Shown: positions 13,733 to 37,191 of the stretch, one piece after another
How positions within the stretch are numbered: the first letter of the stretch is position 1
Layout of the letters: the number at the start of each line of letters is the position of its first letter
Source: a virus
Taxonomy: Duplodnaviria > Caudoviricetes
Virus record (IMG/VR): IMGVR_UViG_3300037419_000284
Span: 1-47,889 of that record
DNA: 47,889 bases
Strand: one strand, 5' to 3'
Made by a program: the position numbers and the translations under genes
The notes under the pieces: generated by a model
What the model was told of the DNA's origin: nothing
The model's database searches: none
The model's input: the letters and a program-made list of their open reading frames with translations, nothing else

Positions 13733-13983
13733 CCCCAAACTGAGGTAAAAGACATTTGGGAATAACTTGTAGCTATTTCATAAGCAATATATGTATCATT
13801 TAGTGATTACGACAGGGGCTTTAGTTGGGCAAGGTTGAATGTAGTTACTTTGATAATTCGGCTTATGTATGATGGTGTGCCTACACCTTTAAGATACCTA
13901 GCTATCTTTCGCTACATTCAATTAATATTATCCTATCTATAAGCACTGATATATGATTCTATTACTTACTATATCACTATCTT
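13733..13983 (-). other. Structured intervening RNA element within the tail chaperone locus
   Basis: Inverted repeats 13835-13844/13912-13921 (10 bp), 13801-13807/13973-13979, 13779-13785/13861-13867, 13734-13739/13755-13760, plus two small hairpins at 13874-13908. Confidence 0.65.
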
Positions 13984-14638
13984 ATTCTTCAAATGTTTCT
14001 TCTTCCAACTCAGCGGGGTCTACAAGGAAGTCGGCAGGTAGACCGTTAATAAATGTCAAGAATTGATATACAATTAAATTAACAGTATTTTGGTCTTCCT
14101 CATTTTTGAAGTCTGCGTACTTTTCCCATACAGACTTACCTGTATCAGCGAACTCAGTACATTTATGAATTAAGAAGGACATTTTAGCCTCGTCTGCTTT
14201 AGCCTCAGCAGTATTGTTGAAGTACTTCTGTTTTTCTTGTTGCAAACCAAACATCTCGTCACGCAAAGCATTGATTTTAGATTCGATAGGAGCGATAGCT
14301 TTTTCTGATTCCATCTTAGACAATAGAACTAGTTGTTTTTCAATATCTTCTCTAATCTTTTCGATTCTTTCATCATCTTTGCTAGTCCATAGCTTTTTCT
14401 TTTTGATTAGTTCTTCCATTTCACGGTTAGTAGGTATATCGTCCATACATGCTTGGTTAAATACCTTAGAGTACTCCCAATCAGCTAAACGATTTTCTTC
14501 TACCTTTGGATAGCGGATTTGTAGTAAACCATACTTATCACTATCAAATACTCGTCTACCAGTTTGAACCTCAGTCATTTTTTCACGCTTTTCCTTGTTA
14601 GTCATTTCCTGACTTTCTTTTCTTTTGCTCTCAGCCAT
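13982..14638 (-). CDS. Tail assembly chaperone (G-like segment)
   Basis: 218 aa, acidic and coiled-coil; between the major tail gene and the tape measure. Confidence 0.65.
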   Translation of the reverse strand: MAESKRKESQEMTNKEKREKMTEVQTGRRVFDSDKYGLLQIRYPKVEENRLADWEYSKVFNQACMDDIPTNREMEELIKKKKLWTSKDDERIEKIREDIEKQLVLLSKMESEKAIAPIESKINALRDEMFGLQQEKQKYFNNTAEAKADEAKMSFLIHKCTEFADTGKSVWEKYADFKNEEDQNTVNLIVYQFLTFINGLPADFLVDPAELEEETFEE

Positions 14639-14716
14639 TCCTTTAGCACCTTCCTTTAAATATTATATAAATAAAAAAGAGACATTATTTGAAAATGTCT
14701 CTCATGGTCAACTAGG

Positions 14717-14965
14717 TTATTCTTTATCGTCAAAGTCAATCTGCTCGTCATACCGAGGTGTGTATTTCACTTCGTACTTTTCGAGTTCTTCTGACATTTT
14801 TCGGATTTCATCGTTACCTGACCTGAGAATCATTTTTCTGATTTTCGCAAATTGCTTAGGCTCAATATTAGCCATCTCCATTAGTGATAAAGAGTCTTTA
14901 AAGACTTTCTTTATGCTCTTAGAGACCGCCCTATTAAGACGCTCTTTGTCCTCGTTCATGCTCAT
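14717..14965 (-). CDS. Hypothetical protein
   Basis: 82 aa in the operon direction, AAGGAG RBS upstream. Confidence 0.6.
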   Translation of the reverse strand: MSMNEDKERLNRAVSKSIKKVFKDSLSLMEMANIEPKQFAKIRKMILRSGNDEIRKMSEELEKYEVKYTPRYDEQIDFDDKE

Positions 14966-15075
14966 ATTAGCACTACTCCTTTCCTTCTTAATCCTTTAAA
15001 CCTCAAAGTGTTTCCTTCTATATTAAGTTGTGATATAGAACGTATGCACCAACCCCGAAGGGCTAGTGCTAGTTA

Positions 15076-16626
15076 TTAGCTAACTTGGTTAGCGTTTAAG
15101 TATTTGTCAGTGATAGTTAGGTTGTGAGCCATGAACTCGAATGATTGAGTAGCATCACTATCAACACGAACATCCCAAGACTCAGATTGTGGAATCAAGT
15201 TCTTGATGTAGATTGTTTTGATAGCATACTTATCAACATGACCCGCAGGTAACTTAGCACGCTTAACATCAGTTTCACGATAAATCTTAACTAGTAAGCC
15301 TTTATCTTTAACTAGGTCGTCAAGTGCAATTTCGTTAGCAGATGCAAGGTTAGAATATCCTGCGAAACGAGCCATTAATTCTAAATCTGAATCTTTAAGT
15401 TCTAGAGAAACAGAGATATTTAGAGGTAATGATAATGGACGGTCATATGGATACATAGAACCTAATTCTGCAAGTGGCTCTCTTTGTAGTGGAGCAGAGA
15501 TACGAGCAGTTTGGATACGAGTTGCACGAGCAGTATCAACTGTAACACCATCATTAGCAACAAGGTATAGTTCGATTTGACCTTCTTTTAATCCACCTGC
15601 TAAATCAGGGTGTGGAGTTTCAAGAGCAGGTACAGGAGCGAAGAACTTACCATTAGAACCGTTAGTTACATAACGAACTTTCACAAGGTCGCCAGTAGAA
15701 GGAGCACTTGTAAGAGTTAAAGTAACACCTGATACAGTGTAATCAGTACCTTCAACTAATTGAGTACCATTCTTAGTAACTTTAAGAGTTTTATTACCAT
15801 TTGCTAAAGTGTATGGAGTGTTAGTAAGAGTTAAAGCAGTTGCAGTAGTTGTTTTGATTTCATCTACAACCATTTGAGATGCACTGTTTAAGAACCAACG
15901 CTTGTTATCAGTTTCCATACGGTAAGATGCAGTTGCAACACCGTTTACTTGGAATGAAAGGTCAATATTGTTAGCATATACTCTTTCCATATACATTGTA
16001 CGAGCGATAGCACCGTTCAAGCCATCACCTGATTGCTTGATAGGAACATACATATCTGCTTTAGCCAATTCAAAATCAGTTGCAGAAATAGATGCCCAAG
16101 TACGAGAGTCAGTGATATTAGCTTGTGTTACAATGTTAGCAGATGGAGTAATACTAGCGATTTGGATAGCACCCGCAGGTAAAGATGCACCGATACCTAC
16201 TTTGTTTGCTACAGCATCAGAAGATACAGTAGGTTGTAAGTAAACTACTTGGTTTCCACTTGATTGTGCAGTAACAGTAGTACCTTCAAATAGTACACGC
16301 TGACCTTTTGCATAGTAAGAACCTGGGTTTACCTTAAGTGTTAATGTACCAACAGCACTTCCACTTGGAACTGCCTCAACTTGGCAACCAAAACCTTTGT
16401 TTGATAGTAAACCTAATAGTTCGTTTGTTCCGTTTTCGTTAGCGTCAACAGATACATCAACTTGTGGTACATCGTCAACAACTTCAACGATATTAAGTGT
16501 ACCTAATTCTTTAATGTCCTCAGTAGATAGACGAGAAGAACTTCCTAACGCTTGGATGCGGTTTCCTTGTGCATCATCAATGAAAGGTGCTGTTCCTGTA
16601 TATCGTACACGACTAGCTTTTGCCAT
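15076..16626 (-). CDS. Major tail (tube) protein with inserted beta-sandwich domains
   Basis: 516 aa; position between the tail completion gene and the chaperone; followed by a UUCG hairpin at 15046-15069. Confidence 0.7.
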   Translation of the reverse strand: MAKASRVRYTGTAPFIDDAQGNRIQALGSSSRLSTEDIKELGTLNIVEVVDDVPQVDVSVDANENGTNELLGLLSNKGFGCQVEAVPSGSAVGTLTLKVNPGSYYAKGQRVLFEGTTVTAQSSGNQVVYLQPTVSSDAVANKVGIGASLPAGAIQIASITPSANIVTQANITDSRTWASISATDFELAKADMYVPIKQSGDGLNGAIARTMYMERVYANNIDLSFQVNGVATASYRMETDNKRWFLNSASQMVVDEIKTTTATALTLTNTPYTLANGNKTLKVTKNGTQLVEGTDYTVSGVTLTLTSAPSTGDLVKVRYVTNGSNGKFFAPVPALETPHPDLAGGLKEGQIELYLVANDGVTVDTARATRIQTARISAPLQREPLAELGSMYPYDRPLSLPLNISVSLELKDSDLELMARFAGYSNLASANEIALDDLVKDKGLLVKIYRETDVKRAKLPAGHVDKYAIKTIYIKNLIPQSESWDVRVDSDATQSFEFMAHNLTITDKYLNANQVS

Positions 16627-16667
16627 TATGAAATCTCTCCTTTTATAATTAATTAATGTTTAATCTA

Positions 16668-17357
16668 TTAAAAGTTAATAGTTAAATCTGCGAAAATTTC
16701 CGTTAAAAATTTGGGTTTTTCTCCTATATCTAAACTTCCGCCTTTACGGTAATTTATGCTACCGCAATACATATAGCCGATAATTTGGTTATCTTCGTTG
16801 TAGTTAGTATTAATAGTTCCATCAGCATTAGTTGGGAAAGCGATATTGTAGTCTATTACTCTCATATCTCCTTCTTCAAAGAAGTCTACTACCATATCTG
16901 TTATGTCATTTCTTTCCCCGCCTCTTTCAGCCCATACCTCGATTACCCATCTTGGGTGAAGTTCTTTACGAGCATTACCTAATTCATATGCCCCATCACT
17001 TCTATTTAACTCATATAGAGCAACAGCAGGATATTTAAAATCAGGACTTTGAGGGCTAACGCTTTCATCATATATATTAATTGGACAGTATGTATAATCA
17101 ACTTCAACTACATCTACAGACCTTAGTGCAGTTGTGAAATTAATCAATCCATTAATATAGTCTACTGAATAACTAGAAGTGTTTTGAATAGCACTATTTA
17201 CATAAACTGTTACAGGGAAATCGGTCTGTATACTATTATATTTAAGATTGTATGTAAGAAAATTGGCACTCGTGACTTTTTCCCTACTTCTAGACCTAGA
17301 TAGTGCTTTCTGTAACTTATGATACAGAGTCAATTCTACTAGTCTTGTTTTCTCCAT
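16668..17357 (-). CDS. Tail terminator/completion protein
   Basis: 229 aa; YPAVAL..YELGN..IEVWAE..ERNDI pattern; position upstream of the major tail gene. Confidence 0.6.
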   Translation of the reverse strand: MEKTRLVELTLYHKLQKALSRSRSREKVTSANFLTYNLKYNSIQTDFPVTVYVNSAIQNTSSYSVDYINGLINFTTALRSVDVVEVDYTYCPINIYDESVSPQSPDFKYPAVALYELNRSDGAYELGNARKELHPRWVIEVWAERGGERNDITDMVVDFFEEGDMRVIDYNIAFPTNADGTINTNYNEDNQIIGYMYCGSINYRKGGSLDIGEKPKFLTEIFADLTINF

Positions 17358-17371
17358 ATAGGCTCACCTCC

Positions 17372-18103
17372 TTAATTGTTATTCAAGTATGTTTCTAATC
17401 CTTCACCGAGAATTTCAAAGACTTCTTGCTTTGCACTTTCTAAACCTAAGCTAAATACATGACCTGCTCTTGTTCCTTGGTGCTCTCTATGTGAATCCAT
17501 CATCTTAGTAATCCTCGGACCTAGCAAGTTTTCTAGTCCTCTCTGATTGACTTTGAAGAATCCCAACTTAGGACCTCCACCTGGACCTGTAACAGGACCG
17601 ACAGATGGACCGTATAGGTATGGCTTATCTCGAGATGTATAGGTAACTCTAAATTCAGGTTGTACTATACCTTCACTTTTACTACCGCTACCGTATTCTG
17701 CAAGTATCCACTTTGGTAGTTCCTTTTCTGCTTGTAGTGAAATTCTAGTAGTGACCATCTCATGTAGTGTTTCATCCCATGTTTGATGGAATTGGAATTG
17801 GTGGTTACGCTTTGCATATACACCCATATTCATATTGTTTATCTCAAACACACCTATAGACATTTTGTTTTGTGTTTGTTTAATCTCAGGGTTTCTGCCT
17901 TCTTCTGATACTAACTTTTCAAGGTCTCCTGATTGCCTATAGTTGTAGCCTGAGTCTCCACCGCCTAGTAATGTATCACCTACATGCCTACCCATAGCCC
18001 TACCTGCATCTTTACCTGCCTCTGCTACTTCTTTACTTTTTAGCATGCCTTTAAATACTCTGCTAAGGTGTGCCTCTAATTCTTCTATATTAGTTTCAGC
18101 CAT
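17372..18103 (-). CDS. Neck/tail completion protein
   Basis: 243 aa; synteny; WILAEYGSG motif reminiscent of HK97 gp10-like proteins. Confidence 0.45.
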   Translation of the reverse strand: MAETNIEELEAHLSRVFKGMLKSKEVAEAGKDAGRAMGRHVGDTLLGGGDSGYNYRQSGDLEKLVSEEGRNPEIKQTQNKMSIGVFEINNMNMGVYAKRNHQFQFHQTWDETLHEMVTTRISLQAEKELPKWILAEYGSGSKSEGIVQPEFRVTYTSRDKPYLYGPSVGPVTGPGGGPKLGFFKVNQRGLENLLGPRITKMMDSHREHQGTRAGHVFSLGLESAKQEVFEILGEGLETYLNNN

Positions 18104-18108
18104 TTATA

Positions 18109-18603
18109 TCAACCCTTTAACTTTAGAGTTATAGCTATCTCATAGAAGTTTCCTTGTAGATAGCCTGCTTGGAAAGATTTTACTATGTACTTTCCGCCCT
18201 TCCACTCAAAGTATTCATATTGACTTAAGAAGGCTTTTATATCAGATTGGCTATCCATATTAAACTTACCATCTACATTTAGAACTGTATTAATCTCTAA
18301 TATATCAATGGTGGCTAAGACTTCACCATCTAGTAGTCGTCCTGTCTCTGCATAGCTATATGTAAAGTCTGCTGATGTTTCAACAGACGAAGGAATGTCA
18401 TAGTATGTTTCTGATACTATCATCCCCCGACCATCACAGGTAGGGCAGTAAGGGTCTGTTGATTCTTTTCTAATTGGGTCATAACCACAATCAGGGCAAT
18501 CTGTCTCAGATACTTTGCAAAGTCTTAGAGTCTCATTAAGTACATGATTCAGACCGCTTATAGAGTTTAACATATTTCTTAAATTTGACTCAGGTATATT
18601 CAT
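18109..18603 (-). CDS. Head closure protein with zinc-finger insertion
   Basis: 164 aa; CPDC..CPTCDGRG; C-terminal FEWKGGKYIV strand pattern; synteny. Confidence 0.55.
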   Translation of the reverse strand: MNIPESNLRNMLNSISGLNHVLNETLRLCKVSETDCPDCGYDPIRKESTDPYCPTCDGRGMIVSETYYDIPSSVETSADFTYSYAETGRLLDGEVLATIDILEINTVLNVDGKFNMDSQSDIKAFLSQYEYFEWKGGKYIVKSFQAGYLQGNFYEIAITLKLKG

Positions 18604-18611
18604 GACTTATC

Positions 18612-19019
18612 CTACTCCAATCTGACTCCCTTAATAGTCGGACCATTCTTACATTGATGTAGAGTTCTCTTGTACTCTCTTTCAAGCAATTCTAATGTAT
18701 CCTTATGGTCTTTAGCTTGGTTAGTGTTATCTAGTGTTAATCTACCTTTAACCATTCTAAAGTTATTTCTATCTGCTTGGTCTTTCGTGCTGACCTTCAT
18801 TAGATAGTGAGCCTTAACGCAAAATAGGTTTGCATCTTGTTTTGTAGGCTCTATATTAAATGAACCGAAGTCAACACTGAATCCCCTTGCCCAATCTAAT
18901 TCAACTTGTGCAACAGCATCTTCTATATACCCTGTCAGTAAATCATCGTCATAAGTGAATGGGTCAACATTATCACCTATTCTTCGTCTTAGTACTAACA
19001 GAACATCTGACATTTGCAT
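18612..19019 (-). CDS. Head-tail adaptor
   Basis: 135 aa; LRRRIGD..FTYDDDLL helical pattern; synteny. Confidence 0.6.
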   Translation of the reverse strand: MQMSDVLLVLRRRIGDNVDPFTYDDDLLTGYIEDAVAQVELDWARGFSVDFGSFNIEPTKQDANLFCVKAHYLMKVSTKDQADRNNFRMVKGRLTLDNTNQAKDHKDTLELLEREYKRTLHQCKNGPTIKGVRLE

Positions 19020-19032
19020 TAATCAACACCTC

Positions 19033-19335
19033 CTACATAAATACTACTTTAAATGTGTCACGATTTAGTGATGGACTTCCTGATACTTCCCCATACCATT
19101 CATATATTAACTTTTGGTTGAGGTAGCCACTAGGAATTGTATAGTCATAGAAATAGTTTCCTTGACTTGCTTTTGTATCTACCCCGACACTAGTAGAGAA
19201 AATCTGCTCATACTTTTGATTGTATACTTTAAAATTAATGATTGATGGGTCAGCAAGTTGGTCAGCAAAATCCTTAAACTCACAAAAAAATCGAACGGTA
19301 TTTCCCTCTTTATAACTCTTTATTGTTGTCGCCAT
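19033..19335 (-). CDS. Small Ig-like virion protein
   Basis: 100 aa, all-beta pattern, GNYFYDYTIP. Confidence 0.45.
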   Translation of the reverse strand: MATTIKSYKEGNTVRFFCEFKDFADQLADPSIINFKVYNQKYEQIFSTSVGVDTKASQGNYFYDYTIPSGYLNQKLIYEWYGEVSGSPSLNRDTFKVVFM

Positions 19336-19348
19336 TTTATCACTTCCA

Positions 19349-19834
19349 TTATTTTAGTGTAGTTGTAGATTCGTCACTGCTAATGATAACAACAGCCTCT
19401 TTAGAATCCATAAATGGATTTCGTTCTTTATCACTAACAGAGATGCTTGCCTCTTCTTCTGACATTGTTAATTTTAATACCAAAGCATCATGTGATGAAA
19501 TTATATTAATAGGCTTGGAAACTATATTTGAGAGATTTCCAACATCATCTTGAAATTGACCGTACATCATCCCGATACCCATTGGGTAGTCAGAGAATAC
19601 CACATGACCAATATACTCGTTGCTTACCTCGTCTAGAATAAATGTAAAGTCGTGCCTAGTACCTAAGCTATCAATAAAGTATATGTCCTGATAACTAGAG
19701 AAAGGCTCGTTTGATACAAATGTTATTTCATTCAAATTCTCCCTGTCTGCATATGGAGGCACATACACTTCTACGTTTGGTCCTGTCGTATCCAACGTCA
19801 GCGTAAAGTACCCATACCCTACCTGTATAGCCAT
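19349..19834 (-). CDS. Ig-like virion protein
   Basis: 161 aa; YFTLTLDTTGP start shared with the neighbour; QDDVGNLS Ig-like motif. Confidence 0.5.
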   Translation of the reverse strand: MAIQVGYGYFTLTLDTTGPNVEVYVPPYADRENLNEITFVSNEPFSSYQDIYFIDSLGTRHDFTFILDEVSNEYIGHVVFSDYPMGIGMMYGQFQDDVGNLSNIVSKPINIISSHDALVLKLTMSEEEASISVSDKERNPFMDSKEAVVIISSDESTTTLK

Positions 19835-19856
19835 TATATCAACCTCCCCTTAAAAA

Positions 19857-19888
19857 TATATCCTGCTAGCGAGTTGCCAACAGGATAT
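19857..19888 (-). terminator. Probable intrinsic terminator
   Basis: ATATCCTG...CAGGATAT stem followed by a T-run on the minus strand. Confidence 0.55.
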
Positions 19889-19895
19889 AAGTTTT

Positions 19896-20612
19896 TTATG
19901 AACTCCATTGACCCGCTTGGTTTTTAACGAATACCTTGATAATCTTATCACCGTCACCTGGGCTTGCTACCTCTAGGTCTCCACCAGTGATAGTTACATT
20001 GATAGGTGTGTTAGCAGGGTAGTTACCACCAGTACCACTAGTAGCTACAGAACCATATGTAGTTGCAATTGCAGTACCCGCTGTATTAACAGCATTTGTA
20101 GCAGAAACGACTAAAACCTTATAGTCTGTAAATAATTGGTCTGATTGGAAGTTGAAGTTACATTGGTTTTTAGTTGCTTGCTTAGAAATCTTAGTTCTAT
20201 CAGGTGTGCTAAGTGACAGTGTAGGTAATGTAGTATTTAGGATAATTGTATCAGTTGCTTGACCTGATTGGTTTAATACATCATCATATAATCTAACATT
20301 TAGTGTCTTAGTAGCGTCACCAGTTGATAACTGAATTTGTTTTGATGCTGAGAAAGCAATCATTACTGCATCTGCCTCAACAGAAGGGTTATTTGTAGTA
20401 CCCGACTTTAAAATACCGTTTGAGATTCCCCAAGTGACATCAATATCACCCCAAATTTTCATTTGGTAGTTAGTCTTGTCGCTATCATCTGTACCAATAG
20501 TAGCTGTTACTAATTGCTGAGTTGCATATGTAGCACTGCTATTAATATTGATAGTGGGATTGGCAGGACCAGTATTATCATAGGTCAGCGTAAAATATGG
20601 ATTTGTAGCCAT
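19896..20612 (-). CDS. Two-domain Ig-like virion (head-associated) protein
   Basis: 238 aa, Thr/Asn-rich beta protein; YFTLTYDNTGP and KVFVKNQAGQWS motifs. Confidence 0.55.
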   Translation of the reverse strand: MATNPYFTLTYDNTGPANPTININSSATYATQQLVTATIGTDDSDKTNYQMKIWGDIDVTWGISNGILKSGTTNNPSVEADAVMIAFSASKQIQLSTGDATKTLNVRLYDDVLNQSGQATDTIILNTTLPTLSLSTPDRTKISKQATKNQCNFNFQSDQLFTDYKVLVVSATNAVNTAGTAIATTYGSVATSGTGGNYPANTPINVTITGGDLEVASPGDGDKIIKVFVKNQAGQWSS

Positions 20613-20629
20613 TAAAAATCACACTCCGT

Positions 20630-21148
20630 TTAAATTAATTGTTCGATTCTTTCTTTAACTATGTCGTACTTCTTGTTGCCCTCCATATCGAGTTCAACTG
20701 CTGTTGCTAGTACAAGTTTAAGGTTATCAACATTGTCGATTTTAGCTACTTCTTTCTCTAGAGTTTTCCAGTGTTTTTCTAGCAACTCAACAGCATCAAT
20801 CTTAGCGAATCCTACTTGTACCGATTTGCCACTCATATCAATTTCTTGAACATTTATTGCTTTATCAGATGGTTTAAATACTGTATGTTCTTTACCATTC
20901 GCAGTCTTAACATTTTCAGTATTAGCGATTCCTTTTTTAGACTTCTCCTCGCCAACCACCTCAACGTCAATATTTCCATTCTCATAGAAGAATTGTAGGT
21001 CATTTACTACTCTCTCAGGAAGTCGTCTAGTATCAACAGTAACTTCCTCGTCATGCCCTAATCCAAAAGCCTGAGATGCAATACGAGAGAATCCTTTGTT
21101 TTTAATATGAATAATTCCTTTAACCGATTTAATATCCATTATATTCAC
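20630..21148 (-). CDS. Hypothetical protein following the capsid gene
   Basis: 172 aa with RBS; helical C-terminus. Confidence 0.6.
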   Translation of the reverse strand: MNIMDIKSVKGIIHIKNKGFSRIASQAFGLGHDEEVTVDTRRLPERVVNDLQFFYENGNIDVEVVGEEKSKKGIANTENVKTANGKEHTVFKPSDKAINVQEIDMSGKSVQVGFAKIDAVELLEKHWKTLEKEVAKIDNVDNLKLVLATAVELDMEGNKKYDIVKERIEQLI

Positions 21149-21169
21149 CTTTTACCTTTCCTTTTTTAA

Positions 21170-21208
21170 AAATAGAAACCCACCCCCCTAACAGGAGGGG
21201 CAGTGGGC
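21170..21208 (-). terminator. Intrinsic terminator after the major capsid gene
   Basis: GC-rich stem CCCAC..GTGGG followed by TTTCTATTTT on the minus strand. Confidence 0.6.
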
Positions 21209-21246
21209 TAGATTATACTATAGTTATATTATATTGCTAGGTTATC

Positions 21247-22185: not shown

Positions 22186-22214
22186 TATTATTTAACCTCC
22201 ATTATAGTTTATAA

Positions 22215-22637: not shown

Positions 22638-22661
22638 TATTGATTTTCCTCCTTAAAGTTA

Positions 22662-24236: not shown

Positions 24237-24253
24237 GTACTTTTTTCACCACC

Positions 24254-26497: not shown

Positions 26498-26556
26498 TTA
26501 GTGGCTCAACTCCTCTCTATATTATATTTACGGAACGCATATAAAAACTTTGCAAC

Positions 26557-28861: not shown

Positions 28862-29019
28862 GTTATCACGCTCCTTCTTAAAAAGATTGGCTATCGGCAA
28901 GGGGATAGTAGCCAAATAGCCAAAAGGTTTGAGAGGTGTAAAAGGGGAAGATAATGGATATTACATAACACTCATTCTTATTTATTTCTAAAAAATATGC
29001 CATTTTGTGTTTTTCGCCC

Positions 29020-29048
29020 TTGACATTATAGGAACAAATTGGTATTAT
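29020..29048 (+). promoter_or_regulatory. sigmaA-type promoter of the recombinase gene
   Basis: TTGACA-17 nt-TATTAT. Confidence 0.7.
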
Positions 29049-29086
29049 TGTGTTATCGGAACAAACAAACATTGGAGGTTGGTACA

Positions 29087-29911
29087 ATGGAAAAATACCT
29101 TAATCATTTTTTGAACTATATTCGTGTCGAGAAAAACCTTTCTCAAAATACTATTGTTGCTTATAGGAAAGACATTGAACAGTACTTTAATATGTGTAAT
29201 ATCAAAGGACTAGAACAACTTGATAAATTTACTATACGAGATTATTTGTCGAAAATTAGTAAGCTAGCACCTACGTCTAGACGAAGAAAACTATCAGCTT
29301 TACGAGCCTTTATGGGCTTTCTGTCCAGTGAAGGCATAATTGAAAAGAACTTCGCATCAGAGATAGAGAACGCAAAAATCGACAAACGATTGCCTAAGGT
29401 CTTATCTGTTAATGAGACCGCTAGTATAATTGATTCTGCTAATAGCATCCAAGATAGAGCAATATTAGAAACACTATATGGATTAGGTTGTCGTGTTTCT
29501 GAACTTGTAAATATAAAAGTTAGTGATATTGAATTTGATGATAGGACGGTCAGATTGTTCGGTAAAGGAAACAAGGAAAGAATTGTACCAATAAACAATG
29601 CCTCACTATCTGCAATTATAGAACACCTTAATACAAGAGGTTTTAATAGCGAATATGTATTTGCTAGTCGTGTATTAGCTGAAAGACCAATGACTACTAA
29701 GAATGTAAGTAGAGTGGTTGCTAAATATAGTGAGGCACACCCTCATATGTTCAGACACAGTTACGCTACACACTTGCATGCTAATGGTGTTGATATAAAT
29801 GTTATTAAAGACTTACTTGGTCATGCCGACATTAGCACAACAACAATCTATACTCATGTTGCAAACGAACAAATGACTAGAGCATATCGTCATGCTCACC
29901 CAAGGGGCTAA
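29087..29911 (+). CDS. XerC/XerD-like tyrosine recombinase
   Basis: GCRVSEL, GKGNKER, HPHMFRHSYATH, LLGH..STTTIY; GGAGG RBS before ATG 29087. Confidence 0.92.
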   Translation: MEKYLNHFLNYIRVEKNLSQNTIVAYRKDIEQYFNMCNIKGLEQLDKFTIRDYLSKISKLAPTSRRRKLSALRAFMGFLSSEGIIEKNFASEIENAKIDKRLPKVLSVNETASIIDSANSIQDRAILETLYGLGCRVSELVNIKVSDIEFDDRTVRLFGKGNKERIVPINNASLSAIIEHLNTRGFNSEYVFASRVLAERPMTTKNVSRVVAKYSEAHPHMFRHSYATHLHANGVDINVIKDLLGHADISTTTIYTHVANEQMTRAYRHAHPRG

Positions 29912-30533
29912 AGGACTCTCTGAGTTTCTTTACCCCTCTTTTTGTTGCTCTCGAAACATTAGCTTGGTTGATACTCAGTTCTTCCGCAATTTCATCTTGT
30001 GTCATATCTGACATATAATACATAAAGATTAAGTCTCTTTGATGTTCTGTTAGATTCTCTAGACCTTGTTGAATCATAATGTTTTCTATAATCCTGTCTT
30101 CATTAAATGGTTCTTCTAGGTAGTAGTCTAACACATTACTGTTTTCTACTACATGATTACTACCATTATGAGAGATATATCCTACTGGATGGTCAATGCT
30201 AACTGTCTTTCTATCTTCCTTGAAGTAATTCATTTCCTTTTTGTAGAAGTTAAAAATACCATTCCTTGCCCTAGATGTAATATGCCTAATAGCTGAACTA
30301 TCTAGCTTTTCGTCATAATCATACATAGCCTCGATTAATTTTAAATCAATCACCTGACATACATCATCAAACTCTATACCTTTACCTGCGAATTTCTTTG
30401 TTAAAGATTTTCTAAAAGGCTCGAACATCTCTAGAATTACCATCATAGCGTCTTGCTTTTTAAATTCATCTTCACTAGTTTGAATAGTCTGAATTAGTTG
30501 TTTAATGTGTACTTCCTTTTCCTTTTTGCTCAT
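29877..30533 (-). CDS. Phage sigma70-family sigma factor
   Basis: Region 2-like GIEFDDVCQ..YDYD and region 4 HTH LTEHQR..MTQDEIAEELSINQANVSR. Confidence 0.85.
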   Translation of the reverse strand: MSKKEKEVHIKQLIQTIQTSEDEFKKQDAMMVILEMFEPFRKSLTKKFAGKGIEFDDVCQVIDLKLIEAMYDYDEKLDSSAIRHITSRARNGIFNFYKKEMNYFKEDRKTVSIDHPVGYISHNGSNHVVENSNVLDYYLEEPFNEDRIIENIMIQQGLENLTEHQRDLIFMYYMSDMTQDEIAEELSINQANVSRATKRGVKKLRESFSPLGEHDDML

Positions 30534-30597
30534 TTTTTACACCTCCTTTTGTAGACCCATTCGTGGGACTAATAACTTTGGACAGTTATATATATAT

Positions 30598-30652
30598 TAA
30601 TTACTAAGTAATAAAAGATAAATAATAAATAATAATATAATTACTAAGTAAT
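30598..30652. repeat. Two copies of TAATTACTAAGTAAT, 40 bp apart, in an AT-rich tract
   Basis: 30598-30612 and 30638-30652; core ATTACT-A-AGTAAT is palindromic. Confidence 0.8.
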
Positions 30653-30757
30653 TACTAATAACTTATTTAATATATATTTAAGATTTAAAAGATTTATTTT
30701 TACACTTGACTTTTTTGTATTATAATTATATTATAAGAGTGCGGGTAAAAAAGAGTG

Positions 30758-31030
30758 CTAAACAGCACTCAAAGTGTTTTCCTCTCTTAGATATACAGTC
30801 TTTGCTAATGCGTGAAGTGGTGAGAGTTGCATGAAGATTACACACACTCCTTCATAACATATACGGTAGTGACAATCATCAACAGGATATTTAGTTCCAT
30901 TTTTAACAATCTCTTTTACTGCTGATGATATTTCATCATAAGAGCCATTACCAATACGCTCTCTCCATCTATAAATTAGATGGGTAGTGACAGAGAACTT
31001 AGTTGTCTCGCCTAAGACATTCACCTCCAA
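30758..31030 (-). CDS. Small DUF4258/RelE-like fold protein
   Basis: 90 aa; TTHLIYRWRERI motif followed by beta strands. Confidence 0.4.
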   Translation of the reverse strand: MEVNVLGETTKFSVTTHLIYRWRERIGNGSYDEISSAVKEIVKNGTKYPVDDCHYRICYEGVCVIFMQLSPLHALAKTVYLREENTLSAV

Positions 31031-31889
31031 GTAACTTATCCATTGTCTTTTCGGTGATGTAAGAAGAAATGTCTAAATCTCTAATAGCCTCCATAAGTGA
31101 GATTGTAGTTTGGAACACACCAAAGCTAGAAACCATATCATCAATATCCGCTAATGCTTTCTGAGAAACTGCATTATCAGAATATCTCTTAATAAAGTTG
31201 ATTATGTTATCTCTATCATTTGAACTAACAGGAATCACATTAACCACCTCTTTCGGTTCTTCTGTCTTGATAGGCTCAATCTTTTCAGCTTTAGGGGCAA
31301 CTGTTACTTTAGCAACATCTCCAATAGTTGCTTTTGAAATATCTTTGAAAGCAGGATTGATTTTTTGTTTACCGCCAATGGCTCTAGTAGAGAAAGCAAC
31401 CTTACCTTCATTGTCAATGCGTTTTACTTTAGCTTTAACTTTTTCACCAACGTAGAAATAATCTTCGGGCATAGTTACGAACTCATTTGCAATTTCTGAA
31501 ATGTGGATTAATCCATCAATACCATCTTTGGTTCTACCAAATGCTCCAAAGTCATGAATAGATGTTATTTCAATTTCTGTAGTTTCTCCTACTTTAACAT
31601 AACTTCTAGGGTCTCTGTATTCGGTTGTGATTGAGTTTGCGTAGCTGTTAATACTTTCGTCAATGTCTATTGGTTTCTTTTCTTCTTCGTCTAGTTTTGG
31701 CTTAATCTCGTTATAATAATAACGTGAGGCAGAATTAGATGTTGTATCATACTTCTCCGCAAATTCCTCAAATATAGTATTCAAGGTTTTCTTCTCCTCC
31801 TTAGGTAAGTCATTATTTCTTCTTACAATAGATTCTAACTCCTTTCCTAATTCAATCCATTTACCTCTGTAACCTACAGTTTCTATCAA
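30999..31889 (-). CDS. S1 RNA-binding domain protein
   Basis: DFGAFG..DGLIHISEIA..VGEKVKAKV; TTG start with GAGGAGG RBS. Confidence 0.8.
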   Translation of the reverse strand: MIETVGYRGKWIELGKELESIVRRNNDLPKEEKKTLNTIFEEFAEKYDTTSNSASRYYYNEIKPKLDEEEKKPIDIDESINSYANSITTEYRDPRSYVKVGETTEIEITSIHDFGAFGRTKDGIDGLIHISEIANEFVTMPEDYFYVGEKVKAKVKRIDNEGKVAFSTRAIGGKQKINPAFKDISKATIGDVAKVTVAPKAEKIEPIKTEEPKEVVNVIPVSSNDRDNIINFIKRYSDNAVSQKALADIDDMVSSFGVFQTTISLMEAIRDLDISSYITEKTMDKLLGGECLRRDN

Positions 31890-31986
31890 AGAAACTCCTC
31901 CTCATTTTTGCTTGTAAATTGGACAAGCATTTTTATGGTTCGGTTTCTATTATAAATTATATTATAAACTAAATCAAGTTATTACC

Positions 31987-32015
31987 TTGACTTTATTTTA
32001 TAAATAGGTTATAAT
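31987..32015 (+). promoter_or_regulatory. sigmaA-type promoter
   Basis: TTGACT-17 nt-TATAAT. Confidence 0.8.
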
Positions 32016-32051
32016 ATAAATAAAATATAAAACCCAAAAAGGTGTGGTAGT

Positions 32052-32636
32052 ATGAAAGTAATCATAATCGAAGGTGCTCGTGGCACTGGAAAATCGACAG
32101 TAGCAAGAAAGATAAGAGAACAAATTTCTGAAATTACGCTAGTAAATCCAACAGGGTTTCATCTAGATGGAACAGAAGGTTTACGCAAGATTTCAACTTA
32201 TTACGATAAGTGGTTAGACCTTTTATGGTCTATGAAAAACGAAGATGTAACTTTTGTATTCGACAGGTTCTTCTTTTCTGAAATGGTCTTTTCTAAGTTG
32301 TATAAGAGTTATGATTTTTCAGAGCAATATGATGAACTATTATTTGACCTTAGGACACTACCATGCGATATAGAAATTATCTTTTTTACTATTGATGATG
32401 AAGAAGAACTAAAGAGTCGATTAGTAAGAGATAAAGTTCCATTTGGTAAAGCAGAAGAAACTGTTACAGAAACAACCAAGCAACAAGATGTTTACAAAGA
32501 TATTATGTCCGACATTTTTGCGGAATATACAAGTGATACATTCAAATTGAGTTATGTCGATACAACTCATAAAACACCTGAGCAAGTGCAAGAAGAAGTA
32601 TTCAAAATTATAAAAGGAGAGGAGAACGCAAAATGA
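32052..32636 (+). CDS. Nucleoside monophosphate (thymidylate-like) kinase
   Basis: IIIEGARGTGKST P-loop and FDRF motif. Confidence 0.75.
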   Translation: MKVIIIEGARGTGKSTVARKIREQISEITLVNPTGFHLDGTEGLRKISTYYDKWLDLLWSMKNEDVTFVFDRFFFSEMVFSKLYKSYDFSEQYDELLFDLRTLPCDIEIIFFTIDDEEELKSRLVRDKVPFGKAEETVTETTKQQDVYKDIMSDIFAEYTSDTFKLSYVDTTHKTPEQVQEEVFKIIKGEENAK

Positions 32637-33388
32637 AAATCGGTATCGTTTCTGACACACATGCAAATTCATTCGCTACAAAAGTAGTACTTGAACATAT
32701 GAAAAGTGTCGGAGTAAACAAGAAGGTTCATCTAGGTGATATTGTTGGTTATGGTCCGAGACCTAGCGAAACACTAGAACTCACGCTAGAGAATTTTAAT
32801 TACATAGTAAAAGGTAATCATGACTTTGCTTGTGAAAACGAAGAAAATAGTTGGGGGTTTAACCCTCAGGCAAAATCGTCTATTGATTGGACAAGAAATC
32901 AACTATCGGAAGAAGAAATTGAGGTGTTAGCCAATCTCCCATACGCACAAAGTATTGGTGAAGATATTATGTTCACACATGGTAGCCCTCATTCTCCATT
33001 CGATTATGTAATGGATATTAATGATGCAAAGTTAGGATTTACAAATGACCAGTTTAGAATTTGTTTCGTAGGTCATACTCATGTTCCTATGGTTTGGGGT
33101 GAAGGAGGATATATCCGCCCTACATATTCAAACAAAGAACTAAACAATTATGGTATGATTAGTGCCTTTGAAATTAGTATACCGAAAGAAGTAAGAGCAA
33201 TCGTAAATGTAGGCTCAGTTGGTCAATCTCGTGATAACGACAGTCGTGCTACATATGCTGTTTATGATACAGAGGAAGAAAAAGTAACAATCTACAAAGT
33301 ACCTTATTCAGTCGAAACAGTTGTTGGTCAAATGCAAAGAGCAGGATTTGAACAAAGTGCATGGCAACGATTAATATACGGTAGATAA
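32633..33388 (+). CDS. Calcineurin-like metallophosphoesterase
   Basis: SDTHAN, LGDIVGYG, GNHD, THGSP, GHTH, NVGSVGQ motifs. Confidence 0.9.
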   Translation: MKIGIVSDTHANSFATKVVLEHMKSVGVNKKVHLGDIVGYGPRPSETLELTLENFNYIVKGNHDFACENEENSWGFNPQAKSSIDWTRNQLSEEEIEVLANLPYAQSIGEDIMFTHGSPHSPFDYVMDINDAKLGFTNDQFRICFVGHTHVPMVWGEGGYIRPTYSNKELNNYGMISAFEISIPKEVRAIVNVGSVGQSRDNDSRATYAVYDTEEEKVTIYKVPYSVETVVGQMQRAGFEQSAWQRLIYGR

Positions 33389-33407
33389 TTTGAAAGGAGA
33401 AACCGAA

Positions 33408-33944
33408 ATGGATTTTAATAAGCCTAAGGTGGCTTGTCCAGTTTGCAACGGTAAAGGCGGATTTAGGAAGTTGAAACAAGACTTCCTAGATAGCAACTGG
33501 ATTGAATGTGCATACTGCGAAAGCTATGGTTTTGTAGATGATACTACAACTGTAGAAGAAGTAAGTAGCCACCTACTATACAACAGATATAAGACTAAGT
33601 TAACAGTTCAACTTGCAAAGCTAGGTGACGTTATTACATGCACATCAGAGCATGAAGGTCATGATATGTTCATTAGGTTCTTACCTTTCAATCGAGAGCC
33701 ATCCGATAGAAAGAAATGGACTACACTAATCAAACACTTACTTAAGTTCTCGCAAAACAGTGAGACAGTAAAGATTTATCCCAAGCAAGCATTTCATCCA
33801 ACCAACGAAGAATATGGTCAAGGATTTGCTATTGATTGGGAGTTACATATAACTACCCACGAACTACAAGACTTAGAGAGTCTAATAGAATTAATTAAGT
33901 TTTATAACGAGACAGTGAATGGAGGTCCGAAATATCTTGATTAA
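33408..33944 (+). CDS. Hypothetical protein with N-terminal DnaJ-type zinc finger
   Basis: CPVCNGKG..CAYCESYG; AAAGGAG RBS before ATG 33408. Confidence 0.6.
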   Translation: MDFNKPKVACPVCNGKGGFRKLKQDFLDSNWIECAYCESYGFVDDTTTVEEVSSHLLYNRYKTKLTVQLAKLGDVITCTSEHEGHDMFIRFLPFNREPSDRKKWTTLIKHLLKFSQNSETVKIYPKQAFHPTNEEYGQGFAIDWELHITTHELQDLESLIELIKFYNETVNGGPKYLD

Positions 33945-34707
33945 CATAGCACTAACATTCTTAGGAACTGGTAGTGCCTTCTCTAAAAGGTTCGGAAATA
34001 ACAGTGCGGTTTTGACAGTTGGAGACAAGAATTTACTCATAGATTGTGGTCGAACAACTCCTGACGACTTAGACAAGTCAGAGTTCAAATGGAGCGACAT
34101 TGATGCCATCTTTATAACTCACTTGCATGGAGACCATGTATACGGTTTAGAGGAGGCAGGATTTATGGGTCGATATGTTTTTCGACAAAAACCGCATATT
34201 ATTTTTCCTCACAAGAAGATTAAGGTAGACTTGTGGGAGAAGGTTCTCAAAGGTACAATGATGCAAGGCGACTTGGAAAGAAACATGACATTTGATGATT
34301 ACTTTACATATGAGATTGTTGATGATAGACAACAGTACTTTGAATTTAATGGTGTCATGATTTCAGTTTTTTCTACACAACATGTAACAAACAAAAAATC
34401 ATATGGACTGATTATCGGAGAGTTTGATTATATTGTTTATACATCAGATTCATTATTCGATAGCGAAATGATAACTGCTTTCCATCGAGGAGGAGCACAA
34501 AAGATATTCCACGATTGTCAAATGGTTGGTTATGACGGTCAAGTACATGCCTCGTTAGATGAACTAGCTACTTTACCCAAAAATATTCGTAAGGATATAG
34601 TTATCATGCACTACGGAGATGACCTAGAAAACCATTTTACTAAGGTTAAAGATTTACAATTAGGTATCGCATTACCAAGAATTACACAAACATTCGTAGT
34701 TAAGTAG
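33919..34707 (+). CDS. apyc1: MBL-fold hydrolase, Apyc1 (anti-Pycsar)-like
   Basis: GTGSAFSK.F.NNSA, LLIDCG, ITHLHGDH..GLEE, FHDCQ, VHASLDEL, MHYGD match my recollection of Bacillus phage Apyc1. Confidence 0.8.
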   Translation: MEVRNILINIALTFLGTGSAFSKRFGNNSAVLTVGDKNLLIDCGRTTPDDLDKSEFKWSDIDAIFITHLHGDHVYGLEEAGFMGRYVFRQKPHIIFPHKKIKVDLWEKVLKGTMMQGDLERNMTFDDYFTYEIVDDRQQYFEFNGVMISVFSTQHVTNKKSYGLIIGEFDYIVYTSDSLFDSEMITAFHRGGAQKIFHDCQMVGYDGQVHASLDELATLPKNIRKDIVIMHYGDDLENHFTKVKDLQLGIALPRITQTFVVK

Positions 34708-34730
34708 AGGGGTAAATCCCCTCTTTTTTT
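34706..34730 (+). terminator. Intrinsic terminator
   Basis: AGAGGGG-TAAAT-CCCCTCT followed by a T-run. Confidence 0.85.
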
Positions 34731-34750
34731 ATTTTTTTCCAAGTTTGTCC

Positions 34751-34779
34751 TTGACTTGTTCCTATAACACAAGTATAAT
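34751..34779 (+). promoter_or_regulatory. sigmaA-type promoter
   Basis: TTGACT-17 nt-TATAAT. Confidence 0.8.
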
Positions 34780-34815
34780 ACAAATATAATAAAAAACGCA
34801 AAGGAGATGATATGA

Positions 34816-35475
34816 ATGGAAGCGAAGAAGTTTCTTTTCAAATCTAGTAGTATCTTATCCGTAGCTATTTTATTGGCAGGTCTAATGACAGTCGGTGATA
34901 CTAAGGCACAAGATATTCAAGAAACAAGCAAGGTAGTGAAGATTGAAAAAACATTACCTGTAGAGAAAGTTGTTACAAAGCAAGACTACTTCGGTTTACT
35001 AGAGAAAGCTAGTGAGGTTTCAAAACAGAAGTATGAATTTCAAGTAAGGAATGAGTCTCCCCCGAGACCGCAACCGAAAATCCAACCAAAACCACAAGTA
35101 AAGGTTGTTACTAAGGTTGCTCCGAAACCTACCCCACCACCAAAACCACACTACAGACAAGTCCATGTGGTAGCAACTGCATATACGAACAGTTGTGCGG
35201 GCTGTACTGGAATAACATCAACAGGAGTTAATATTAAAAACACAATCTACCACGAAGGCTATCGTGTGATAGCAACAGACCCTTCGGTTATTCCAACACA
35301 TTCCGTAGTGAGAATTGAAACTAATAATGGTAGTTTCCTAGCAATAGCAGAAGATAAAGGTGGAGCAATACATGGCTCAATTATAGATGTACTTGTGTCT
35401 TCATATAACGATGCTATACGCTTTGGAAGACAGCGTGTAACGATTACAATACTAAGAGAGGGTGATGGTTCATGA
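34816..35475 (+). CDS. Exported 3D-domain (YocH-like) cell wall protein
   Basis: Signal-like N-terminus, Pro/Lys linker, ATAYT..IATDPSVIP..AEDKGGAI..IIDV. Confidence 0.85.
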   Translation: MEAKKFLFKSSSILSVAILLAGLMTVGDTKAQDIQETSKVVKIEKTLPVEKVVTKQDYFGLLEKASEVSKQKYEFQVRNESPPRPQPKIQPKPQVKVVTKVAPKPTPPPKPHYRQVHVVATAYTNSCAGCTGITSTGVNIKNTIYHEGYRVIATDPSVIPTHSVVRIETNNGSFLAIAEDKGGAIHGSIIDVLVSSYNDAIRFGRQRVTITILREGDGS

Positions 35476-35675
35476 CGATGAAAGAAAGCTATACAGAGGC
35501 TACTGAGTGGCTCTCAGCACACCCACGAAACGGAATACTTATCAGAGTAAAAACAGAGAGTGAACTTAAAAAATATCAAAAGTTCTTTAAGGCAGAGATA
35601 GAATATGATTTGTTTTTAGATGATACTGTTTACGATAGAATTGAATGGCGAATTGACCCTACCGTTGATAAATAA
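35472..35675 (+). CDS. Hypothetical protein
   Basis: 67 aa, ATGA overlap with the upstream gene. Confidence 0.55.
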   Translation: MTMKESYTEATEWLSAHPRNGILIRVKTESELKKYQKFFKAEIEYDLFLDDTVYDRIEWRIDPTVDK

Positions 35676-35702
35676 AGTTATAATATAAATATAATTCACC
35701 CC

Positions 35703-35731
35703 TTGACTTTTTAGTACAAGGGGTTTATAAT
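35703..35731 (+). promoter_or_regulatory. sigmaA-type promoter
   Basis: TTGACT-17 nt-TATAAT. Confidence 0.8.
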
Positions 35732-35761
35732 ATAAATATAATACATGAGGAGATGGTTGGC

Positions 35762-35899
35762 ATGTTGAAAATAGATAAAGAGAAAATGGCGAAAGCATAC
35801 GTTGAGATGGGAGCAATTAATCTCTCAATCTCAGAAGAATATAATCAAACAGAATTAAAAGAGTATTTAGAAATGGAGGTAGAATTAGGTGCAATTTAA
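35762..35899 (+). CDS. 45-aa MazE (NdoAI) C-terminal mimic, putative MazF inhibitor
   Basis: Not in the ORF track; GAGGAG RBS; MLKIDKEKMAKAYVEMGAINLSISEEYNQTELKEYLEMEVELGAI resembles B. subtilis NdoAI MRRGYMEMAKINLNISSE as I recall it. Confidence 0.75.
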   Translation: MLKIDKEKMAKAYVEMGAINLSISEEYNQTELKEYLEMEVELGAI

Positions 35900-36170
35900 C
35901 GAGGTAACAGAAAAGGAATTGATACTACAAATGCTACTAGCTGAGTGCATTAGACGACTTAGCAAGAATGGTAAGCATAAAGTATCAATCACTAATAGAC
36001 AATTAGAAATGTTGGTAGATAACGAGATGGAAGTTGACTTCTCTGAGTCAAATGATATTAGATTCATCTTAAAGTACCAAAAGATGCAAGACGATATTGA
36101 GGTAATAGCAAATGTAGTAGTGCCAAGAGAGAAGTTGGTGGTTACAGATGAAAGCGTACCTAGCGAATAG
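35889..36170 (+). CDS. Hypothetical protein
   Basis: 93 aa; GTG start with GGAGG RBS. Confidence 0.6.
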   Translation: MQFNEVTEKELILQMLLAECIRRLSKNGKHKVSITNRQLEMLVDNEMEVDFSESNDIRFILKYQKMQDDIEVIANVVVPREKLVVTDESVPSE

Positions 36171-36669
36171 TTTATTTAGCCAAGCAGATGCCATGTATAA
36201 CGCATACATAGCTGAACAACTTCGCATAGCCTTTCCTGATTTAGAACTATACGTTCCTCAGGAAAATGAGGCTATCAATGACAAACAGGCATATGCTAAT
36301 TCATTAATGATTAGACGAGGTGACGATAAACCACTATTACTATCTGATTTTCTAGTAGCAGTAATAGACGGATGTGAAATCGACTCAGGTGTAGCTTGTG
36401 AGATAGGTAAGTTAGCAGGTTACGATATGGCTCGTCATGATTTACTAGGTCTACCATATAGACCAATCTTCGCTTTATTTACAGATGTTCGTCAACAAGG
36501 TAGAGATAATCGACAAAAGATTGAGGCACTTATTAAGAACTCAGTTGAGAATCAATTTCCCTACCGCAATTTGTATGTAATTGGAACTATCTACAACTCA
36601 AATGGAGATGTTGTTCCTAATGTTGCAGAATTAATTGATGCAATTCGTAAATATATTAGTAGCAATTAG
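36148..36669 (+). CDS. Nucleoside 2-deoxyribosyltransferase-family protein
   Basis: AYLAN.LF, YVPQEN, DFLVAVIDG..IDSGVACEIG. Confidence 0.8.
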   Translation: MKAYLANSLFSQADAMYNAYIAEQLRIAFPDLELYVPQENEAINDKQAYANSLMIRRGDDKPLLLSDFLVAVIDGCEIDSGVACEIGKLAGYDMARHDLLGLPYRPIFALFTDVRQQGRDNRQKIEALIKNSVENQFPYRNLYVIGTIYNSNGDVVPNVAELIDAIRKYISSN

Positions 36670-37059
36670 TTTTTGATTAGGAAAGTCGGAATTGGAGATA
36701 GTTCGGGACCGACATAGGCAGGTGATAGGGGTTAATTCCTGCTAGCCCCAAGGCGGGCAAATTGGAGAGTTGCTAGCCTCTCTAGGAAATACGCATGGGC
36801 GAAGGTAGCGGGTGCGTACAAGTCTCTTGATGGGTTTAGTGGAGACACAAAACAAACTACTCTCACAAAGCTACATTACCACGAATAACAATTAAGTTGG
36901 TGGTCACTATGCACAGTCAGAAATGTAGCACTACATTAAGTCCATGTTGATACTACAGACCGAGATGGCAAAGTAGAAAACGAATCATGGCAACGGTAAA
37001 GACTGGTCGGAATCACAAAGGAAGGGATAGGGGCTAAAGCTAAGTTCCTCCTTCTCACG
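36668..37059 (+). ncRNA. Large structured intergenic RNA with group I intron-like core features
   Basis: ORF-free, GC-richer than its flanks, at least seven helices; P7-like CAGACCG (36956-36962)/UGGUCG (37004-37009); terminal hairpin 37021-37054 then G37059. Confidence 0.6.
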
Positions 37060-37066
37060 TTTACCC

Positions 37067-37095: not shown

Positions 37096-37113
37096 ATATT
37101 TATAAGATAACGA

Positions 37114-37179
37114 GAGACACTAACAGCAACCCTACTACTTACACAATCAAATGGTGATTATTTTAGTATAAGGTGTCTC
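37114..37179 (+). ncRNA. ACAGCAA-motif RNA unit 1
   Basis: Closing stem GAGACAC/GTGTCTC, ACAGCAA at 37123-37129, inner TACTA/TAGTA helix and AATCA/TGATT hairpin. Confidence 0.7.
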
Positions 37180-37191
37180 GTTGAAAACGTA

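Follow-up and report, generated by a model that had tools for sequence, protein, structure and literature searches.

Here, we analyse a window of 47,889 nucleotides (nt; positions 1 to 47,889 of the IMG/VR record IMGVR_UViG_3300037419_000284, Duplodnaviria, Caudoviricetes), a fragment covering ~24% of a siphophage genome of ~160 kb, and describe a stem-enclosed discontinuity in its tail assembly chaperone gene that is well supported by comparison with related loci and apparently undescribed. Two frames on the minus strand, named G and T, together encode one known protein, in which Leu205 of G (codon CUU) and the first Leu of T (codon CUA) occupy the same position. As judged from related sequences, the position of the join, the stem, the fixed codons and the lack of a start or a simple frameshift route into T are firm. 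How the gap is crossed is a matter of weighing: ribosomes probably skip the 293 nt within the stem, so that a low-level hop from CUU to CUA would yield the G-T fusion.

G lies on the minus strand directly after a putative tail tube gene of 516 aa; a 250-nt spacer, the T frame, which has no start, and a tape measure gene of 3418 aa come next (Table 1). The chaperone label of G is based on this gene position and on one source name; neither Pfam, PHROG nor a fold search assigned G to a family, the fold search giving nothing at E ≤ 0.001 and weak chaperone matches at E 0.07. The 28 G loci that were retrieved were reduced to 11 distinct ones, the window included, by removing window copies, duplicates, truncated loci (L022, L023, L026) and distant loci of another layout (L020, L024, L027, L028, L029). 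One relative of the window phage is a prophage in Chengkuizengella; an order-wide search of GTDB gave 2/401, of which one is real, and no G homologue was present in the phage and plasmid collections searched. The spacer measures ~250 nt in four loci that form one clade, 170 nt in one locus (G008) and ~13–21 nt in six, and the skipped gap is 67–298 nt long and occurs in all three frames across the 11 loci.

Table 1. Coordinates of the features discussed, in window positions.
Feature	Position	Strand	Remarks
Tail assembly chaperone G, 218 aa	13982–14638	−	Assigned by position between tail tube and tape measure genes
Predicted take-off codon CUU, Leu205	14024–14026	−	Leu invariant in 62 G proteins; CUU in 11/11 loci
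Skipped gap, 293 nt	13731–14023	−	Acidic G tail, stop codon (13984–13982), structured spacer
Helix H, 5′ strand	14009–14020	−	Within G codons 207–210
Spacer core	13835–13921	−	11-bp helix, ~13921–13911 with 13845–13835, closing small hairpins
Best-conserved spacer motif, ACC(U/G)UGCCCA	13826–13835	−	
Helix H, 3′ strand	13731–13744	−	Ends in the GGGG run that the initial annotation took as 3′ splice site
Predicted landing codon CUA, followed by Arg resume codon	13728–13730	−	CUA or CUU in 11/11 loci
T coding octamer GGGCAAGG	13705–13712	−	Partner of the spacer motif
T frame	13308–13730	−	Without own start codon
Structured non-coding RNA (ncRNA)	~36672–37058	+	Purine-rich loops on five hairpins, then a hairpin at the 3′ end; homologous copies in G001/G002 and G004
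ncRNA hairpin H4	36790–36818	+	Loop complementary to G mRNA immediately upstream of the take-off codon
tRNA-Leu(UAG)	45856–45941	+	No other Leu tRNA among the window's 24 ARAGORN calls

Position of the G-T join

The stop codon of G is retained in 11/11 loci, and T lies in frame 0, +1 or −1 relative to G without a suitably placed start codon. Stops close the T frame upstream of the join, and in one locus a stop stands directly before the landing codon. None of the 11 loci has a lambda-type overlap of the T frame with G and a slippery heptamer.

The join itself can be read from natural fusions. We aligned the 110 natural proteins of at least 285 aa among 148 newly listed matches to T homologues; 108 of the 110 match the G profile, so that T homologues are mostly fused proteins. 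In this alignment Leu205 of G and the first Leu of T fall in one column, and the distance from the Gly of the G motif GLPADFL to the Arg of the T motif LREIAR is exactly 7 residues in 110/110 fusions, with Arg in that column in 108. An aligner can favour a compact join, yet no row needed an insertion or deletion. Because the distance is constant, the last Leu of GLPADFL and the first Leu of LREIAR are one and the same residue. The predicted structure of one natural fusion has a pLDDT above 90 across the join. With 110 natural fusions in register, the two discontinuous frames make up a single protein, and by this alignment the join runs from the CUU codon of Leu205 (14026–14024) to the CUA codon of T (13730–13728), with the acidic tail of G discarded. 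An initial annotation of this DNA had rightly argued that G and T must be joined; its 5′ splice site at the stop codon, however, leaves the acidic tail in a junction that has constant length in 110/110 fusions, and the loss of that tail at the join rules this site out.

Distant relatives reach the same protein by other means. In L024, the junction of G and T (L024:3194-3345) itself holds a −1 slippery heptamer, C_CCA_AAC, whereas L020 (2116-4002), L028 (1-1755) and L029 (3004-4761) have a G gene followed by a separately encoded full G-T fusion gene; their gene order indicates that duplication replaces recoding there. A further locus, L027:3646-4059, resembles a G-T fusion with an internal deletion.

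A helix between two leucine codons

In 11/11 loci the bases +4 to +18 after the take-off Leu codon are predicted to pair with the bases just before the Leu codon of T, forming a closing helix that we call helix H (14020–14009 with 13744–13731 in the window). Its energy ranges from −15 to −24 kcal/mol and is equalled by at most 1/1000 random pairs per locus; cognate strands average −19.0 against −13.8 for non-cognate ones, and 0/100,000 permutations did as well. At +10, +12, +13, +14 and +15 the type of pair varies between loci with both partners altered, and G·U pairs are kept, which argues for pairing in RNA rather than in DNA.

Codon choice around the helix is equally restricted. All 11 loci use CUU for take-off, a codon found at 16 of the remaining 130 Leu positions in these G genes, and nine encode the Pro of the stem by CCC, as against 0/43 upstream. 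Within the close clade synonymous sites are frozen, with identity at 6/7 of the last G codons and 10/14 of the first degenerate T codons (53/139 over G overall). The G-C core of helix H begins 6–8 nt ahead of the take-off codon, and a GGRGG sequence stands 4–7 nt before the landing codon in the six short spacers; in the long ones it is degenerate and the Shine-Dalgarno-like spacing shrinks to 2 nt. The anticodon of tRNA-Leu(UAG) would be the one needed for re-pairing from CUU to CUA, and this tRNA is encoded in the window, G004 and G006. The window cluster of 24 tRNA genes (ARAGORN; 44181–46328) also includes Ile(TAT). Take-off at the Glu codon before the stop was considered as well and was rejected, as no matched landing codon exists for it.

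What event would leave such a pattern? A ribosome with peptidyl-tRNA-Leu on CUU may meet the G-C core 6–8 nt ahead and stall; the peptidyl-tRNA would then let go and re-pair on CUA or CUU at the far foot of the stem, with decoding resumed at Arg. Most ribosomes would instead unwind the stem and stop at UAA, giving G, while a minority hops and gives G-T, and the GGRGG strand, once opened, may serve as a Shine-Dalgarno sequence for the landing site. Such a hop explains the matched codons, the independence of frame and the distance to the G-C core. Several of its elements have parallels in the sources consulted: in homologues of gene 60 the landing codon can deviate from the take-off codon at the wobble position (10.1101/2022.08.31.505936), stem-loops can dock in the A site (PMC7282821), and bacterial stimulators lie 5–6 nt from shift sites (PMC10732093).

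A number of observations weigh against the hop. The cognate strand is the single best partner within helix H in 3/11 rows only, and the 11 loci are mutually related, four of them closely. The A-site codons at take-off (GUA, GUU, AUU, UCA, UCG, CAA and UUC) include neither a stop nor an evidently rare or hungry codon in any of the 11 loci, unlike in gene 60. The long gaps contain 8–13 decoy CUU or CUA triplets, which excludes plain scanning and makes a true jump over a folded domain necessary; we found no demonstrated case of such a jump in the literature, and gene 60 ribosomes are described as sliding through their gap (PMC10732093; 10.1101/2024.12.09.627546). No tRNA-Leu(UAG) turned up in G002, G007 or G008 within the tRNA stretches that were scanned. 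Finally, an in-frame excision that cuts after a U and after a G (after 14029 and after 13733 in the window) restores the same protein in 5/5 long spacers, against 1/6 short ones at that position.

The spacer within the helix is a conserved structured RNA. Its core helix is paired in 98% of cells, with one pair changed on both sides in the four close relatives, and the octamer GGGCAAGG at 13712–13705 pairs over 8 bp in cis with 13834–13827 in 5/5 long spacers, a clamp in which a U-A pair becomes G·U in G008. The idea that the spacer is an inserted intron does not fit the six short-spacer relatives, which retain the stop, the stem and the layout with two Leu codons; the long spacer thus expands an existing gap and does not interrupt a continuous gene. 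In terms of the hop, the spacer of 170–250 nt may be a later loop expansion with its own fold and a clamp on T codons 7–9. Two further features of this region were looked at. In place of the clamp on T codons, the loops AGGU and UAGGCA (13910–13860, minus strand) might pair with ACCUUGCCCA in a double pseudoknot, the second of these loops being missing from G008; and an upstream open reading frame from a conserved AUGAAA was rejected, since it is closed in the window and in G008.

The same helix and codons could be put to other uses. XBP1-type splicing and translational coupling are known mechanisms, and each has a possible counterpart here. In protein-catalysed splicing of the tRNA or XBP1 kind, a nuclease would cut by CU at each foot of helix H, after which a ligase would join the exons; the recurrence of CU(U/A) at either end, with a helix to hold the two close, suits such a reaction, and the genome has a DUF2828 Ro60-like RNA-binding gene and many tRNAs. 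We nonetheless regard it as unlikely, given that both CU motifs are in-frame Leu codons that one tRNA reads, and that RtcB was not found in any of the five phage records searched (71–89% complete), though a host ligase might serve instead. Nor is there a consistent exon-exon helix to hold the cut ends: exon-exon pairing exceeds the synonymous null in 1/11 loci only, and a conserved helix of this sort was rejected as a candidate for want of consistent pairing.

Similarly improbable in our view is that T is a separate protein, whose Shine-Dalgarno sequence helix H would hide until ribosomes finishing G open it. In the six short spacers, the GGRGG placed 4–7 nt ahead of the Leu codon could act in this way, and the coupled opening of a ribosome-binding site is familiar, but translation would have to initiate at the non-canonical codon CUA or CUU with a spacing of only 2 nt in the long spacers, and neither the fixed CUU in G nor the exact register with 110 fusions would be explained.

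A structured RNA and its possible contacts with the chaperone mRNA

Far downstream, the window encodes a structured ncRNA between a deoxyribosyltransferase gene and the promoter preceding the DUF2828 Ro60-like gene. Its stems covary and its purine-rich loops are conserved in three genomes (G001/G002 counted once), and on this comparative evidence it is a genuine structured RNA, in agreement with the initial annotation. Rfam held no family for it and gave no covariance-model match. BLAST with the ncRNA missed its homologues in G002 and G004, for which reason blank BLAST results are not counted as absences here; synteny and nhmmer revealed both. Leave-one-out nhmmer recovers each member of the clade at E 5e-8 or better, a measure of sensitivity that applies within the clade, G008 being more distant. 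The initial annotation had suggested co-occurrence of the RNA and the spacer as a check, and this fits in part: the ncRNA is present in 3/3 testable phages with a 250-nt spacer, all of one clade, for which reason the co-occurrence counts as a single event, but it was not found in G008 (170 nt), which has a long spacer, nor in G006 and G007, which have short ones. These counts leave aside G003, G005 and G009, whose records do not extend over a syntenic region; the 80 kb beside the G009 prophage are non-syntenic. Pattern scans (75 loci in one, of which three are the known ncRNAs) and a scan by DUF2828 protein gave no new ncRNA, and in the phage and plasmid collections the region matched only short stretches that resemble promoters or reflect chance. 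Descent from RNase P was rejected for lack of a model match; the same library did find a true type B RNase P RNA in G008.

The initial annotation had proposed that this RNA carries a group I core and splices the chaperone mRNA in trans through four pairings. The complementarities exist: 36722–36733 forms 12 pairs, four of them G·U, with 13820–13809, 36755–36760 forms six Watson-Crick pairs with 13832–13827, 37009–37016 matches 13766–13759 at 7/8 positions, and GUUC matches the exon end. They do not, however, exceed chance, and the warning that short G·U-tolerant matches arise by chance was well placed, since a helix of 12 bp or longer is found in 20/60 dinucleotide shuffles of the insert. Non-cognate pairs also reach 12 bp, cofolding is weaker than in 25/25 shuffles, and shared perfect 6-mers number 31 and 7-of-8 matches 49, where shuffled inserts give 24 and 38. 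In the two homologous ncRNAs the GGGCAA hairpin is missing and GGAAUCAC and GUUC are changed. The 12-pair match does persist weakly; even so, the cognate insert is its best partner in only one of three cases and the site ranks 128 of 645 targets. The first two pairings moreover have rivals in cis, the ncRNA sequence AGCCCC at 36744–36749 (7 bp) and GGGCAAGG at 13712–13705, which competes for UUGCCC.

A catalytic core fares no better. In group I introns the P7 helix has a bulged A and a G-C pair that forms the guanosine site. A P7-like helix with a bulged A and a G-C pair is found in the window only, and this G-binding pair is absent in two of the three homologues, G002 and G004. The group I model gave no match at E ≤ 1 in the window or at E ≤ 10 in L008, L076 and L132, RF00028 gave none in G001/G002, and Rfam gave none for group II domain 5 or canonical ends in either region. 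A P1-type U·G pair with GUUC at the originally proposed site is unconserved; GGUCGG at the corrected site fits in 2/3, using the same strand that P7 would need.

Contacts at other sites are better supported. The loop of ncRNA hairpin H4 pairs with G mRNA just 5′ of the take-off codon over 11 + 4 bp in G002 and 8 + 4 bp in G004, and over 9 bp in a shifted register in the window, with energies of −21.0, −21.4 and −14.5 kcal/mol, respectively; in all three genomes this is stronger than the loop's own best cis partner. An unbiased scan for helices kept in three genomes places sites of the take-off zone at ranks 1, 2 and 8 of 645. The sum of the three sites is reached by 0/900 column shuffles and the best single site by 5–14/300, the contact motifs having been inspected by eye before these statistics. 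Among 364 overlapping control windows only six do better, all of which contain the junction or its cis partners, and the next control window comes close (−36.9 against −38.9). On the other hand, the H4 loop is outside the window's top six in a single-genome scan, the ncRNA motif at rank 8 also forms the 3′ hairpin, and 3/5 non-cognate assignments score as well as or better than the cognate one, so that the intermolecular covariation which the initial annotation suggested looking for is absent.

These comparisons tentatively point to a real contact between the ncRNA and the chaperone mRNA around the take-off codon, which might tune the event in that clade. The suggestion that the ncRNA acts on this mRNA would thereby keep some support, at sites other than those proposed. 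That a free-standing phage RNA, by pairing around take-off, drives or licences the 293-nt discontinuous decoding or splicing, so that an RNA of the early region would set the G:G-T ratio, appears rather doubtful. A role for a trans RNA may be offered by the proposal that pairing of the exiting mRNA drives gene 60 bypassing (10.1101/2024.12.09.627546).

If the ncRNA, alone or with a protein, instead directed excision in trans in the long-spacer clade, the cuts would lie after U14029 and after G13733, removing 296 nt. This is the in-frame option found in 5/5 long spacers, and it would agree with the presence of the ncRNA in 3/3 testable genomes and with the ranks of its conserved segments at the take-off zone (1, 2 and 8 of 645; 0/900 shuffles). 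In addition, pairing is possible between the conserved 3′ sequence GGUCGG and the six bases at the end of the exon, with G·U as the final pair (exact in 2/3), and a rare Ala codon, GCC (15/491 in late genes), is fixed there in 4/4 clade members and present in 1/7 others. Still, we give this reading a low probability. The group I or II core is absent, with the G-binding pair missing in 2/3, the non-cognate assignments and the rank of the H4 loop in the window speak against it, the co-occurrence comes from one clade, and the G at 13733 is already accounted for by helix H. Short-spacer phages, moreover, make the same join, the ncRNA not being found in the two that could be assessed, and G008 likewise lacks a recognised copy.

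A polymerase jump across the hairpin in transcription or replication is very improbable: a short direct repeat on either side of an inverted repeat is a classic layout for deletions, but here the direct repeat is 2–3 nt only and the conserved G·U pairs favour pairing in RNA. Scarcely credible, finally, is the removal of 13983–13733 by a group I core of the ncRNA, with a cut inside the stop codon, as the initial annotation had it; the matches, the in-frame join and the P7-like helix of the window exist, and short atypical introns ending in G after a U-terminated exon are reported from phage tail genes (PMC3706429), but pairings and core are unconserved, the pairings are at chance level, and the acidic tail would be kept at the join, as in 0/110 natural fusions.

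Some observations on the ncRNA and on other RNAs of these phages stand apart from these questions. Hairpin H3 of the ncRNA (36763–36786 in the window, and in the homologues) has a palindromic loop, GCUAGC, or GUAGCUAC in G004, and may be a dimerisation loop. The ncRNA of the window (36672–37058) also has four conserved GGA motifs; GGA is the motif of CsrA, and a role as a CsrA sponge is a candidate alternative. The motif (A)ACGT follows the ncRNA (37056–37060), many tRNAs and ACAGCAA units (L045, L054), possibly as a processing signal. These units form a hairpin array upstream of the DUF2828 Ro60-like gene in all relatives seen (window 37100–37440; L030-L033; L054:11920-12350), one of them tRNA-like (37219–37273, E 0.34), and the array is possibly Y-RNA-like. 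G008 encodes its type B RNase P RNA inside a tRNA cluster (L045:4523-4900), with a loop that by eye holds an 8-nt complement to the 5′ strand of its helix H. A skipping-rope RNA lies among tRNAs at L059:5148-5231, and weak group I intron matches below the cut-off occur in G006 (C1:132346-133405 and 80118-80294). In the window (29039–30533), integrase and sigma-factor genes converge with a 35-nt overlap, a layout kept in all larger relatives.

Relation to known systems

The G-T switch of tail chaperones is the textbook example of frameshifting. The closest comparison by gene is the −1 frameshift that makes gpG and gpGT in lambda (PMC5009743), which is alike in gene position, in its two products and in a startless T. 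Here, however, G and T do not overlap at the join, and 67–298 nt, including the tail and stop of G, would be skipped in any frame. The closest comparison by mechanism is the 50-base jump in gene 60 of T4. The gap in the present loci is up to six times longer, take-off would occur without a stop or hungry codon within an open reading frame that is also read to its end, and one helix encloses the whole gap; the event would thus be regulatory, setting a ratio, rather than the rescue of an insertion. The terminase bypass of Streptomyces phage Hau3 likewise concerns a phage assembly gene in which a predicted structure brings the landing site near take-off, but as described it uses a rare UUA codon and a much shorter gap (PMC10732093).

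Among introns, that of a tail gene in Cluster J mycobacteriophages is alike in size (265 nt, cut after a U and after a G), in lying in a structural gene and in its unclear intron type; its intron-free allele is reported as a continuous open reading frame (PMC3706429), whereas every close relative here keeps the stop and the stem. Trans-splicing and split group I or II introns share with the present case a separate RNA whose loops are able to pair with the end of an exon, but no conserved catalytic core was found in either RNA here. In a full-text literature search, with subscription papers outside its scope, no report turned up of a tail assembly chaperone gene that is bypassed or spliced.

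In practical terms, gene callers miss or truncate T in these phages. For the mechanism, each reading carries its own consequence: splicing would mean an intron type without a known core, and a role for the ncRNA, if true, would be a first, either as an RNA that acts in trans on a bypass or as a splicing RNA of a new class. Very few natural genes are known to use programmed bypassing, and the gaps in the reported cases that we found do not exceed 50 nt. Should the chaperone mRNA indeed be crossed by a hop, neither a stop nor a hungry codon would be needed for ribosomes to jump a folded domain, and the question of jumping versus sliding would become testable with a natural cassette of 70 nt. Within one protein family, the same join is reached in three ways: by slipping −1, by duplicating and fusing the gene, and by skipping 67–298 nt enclosed in a stem.

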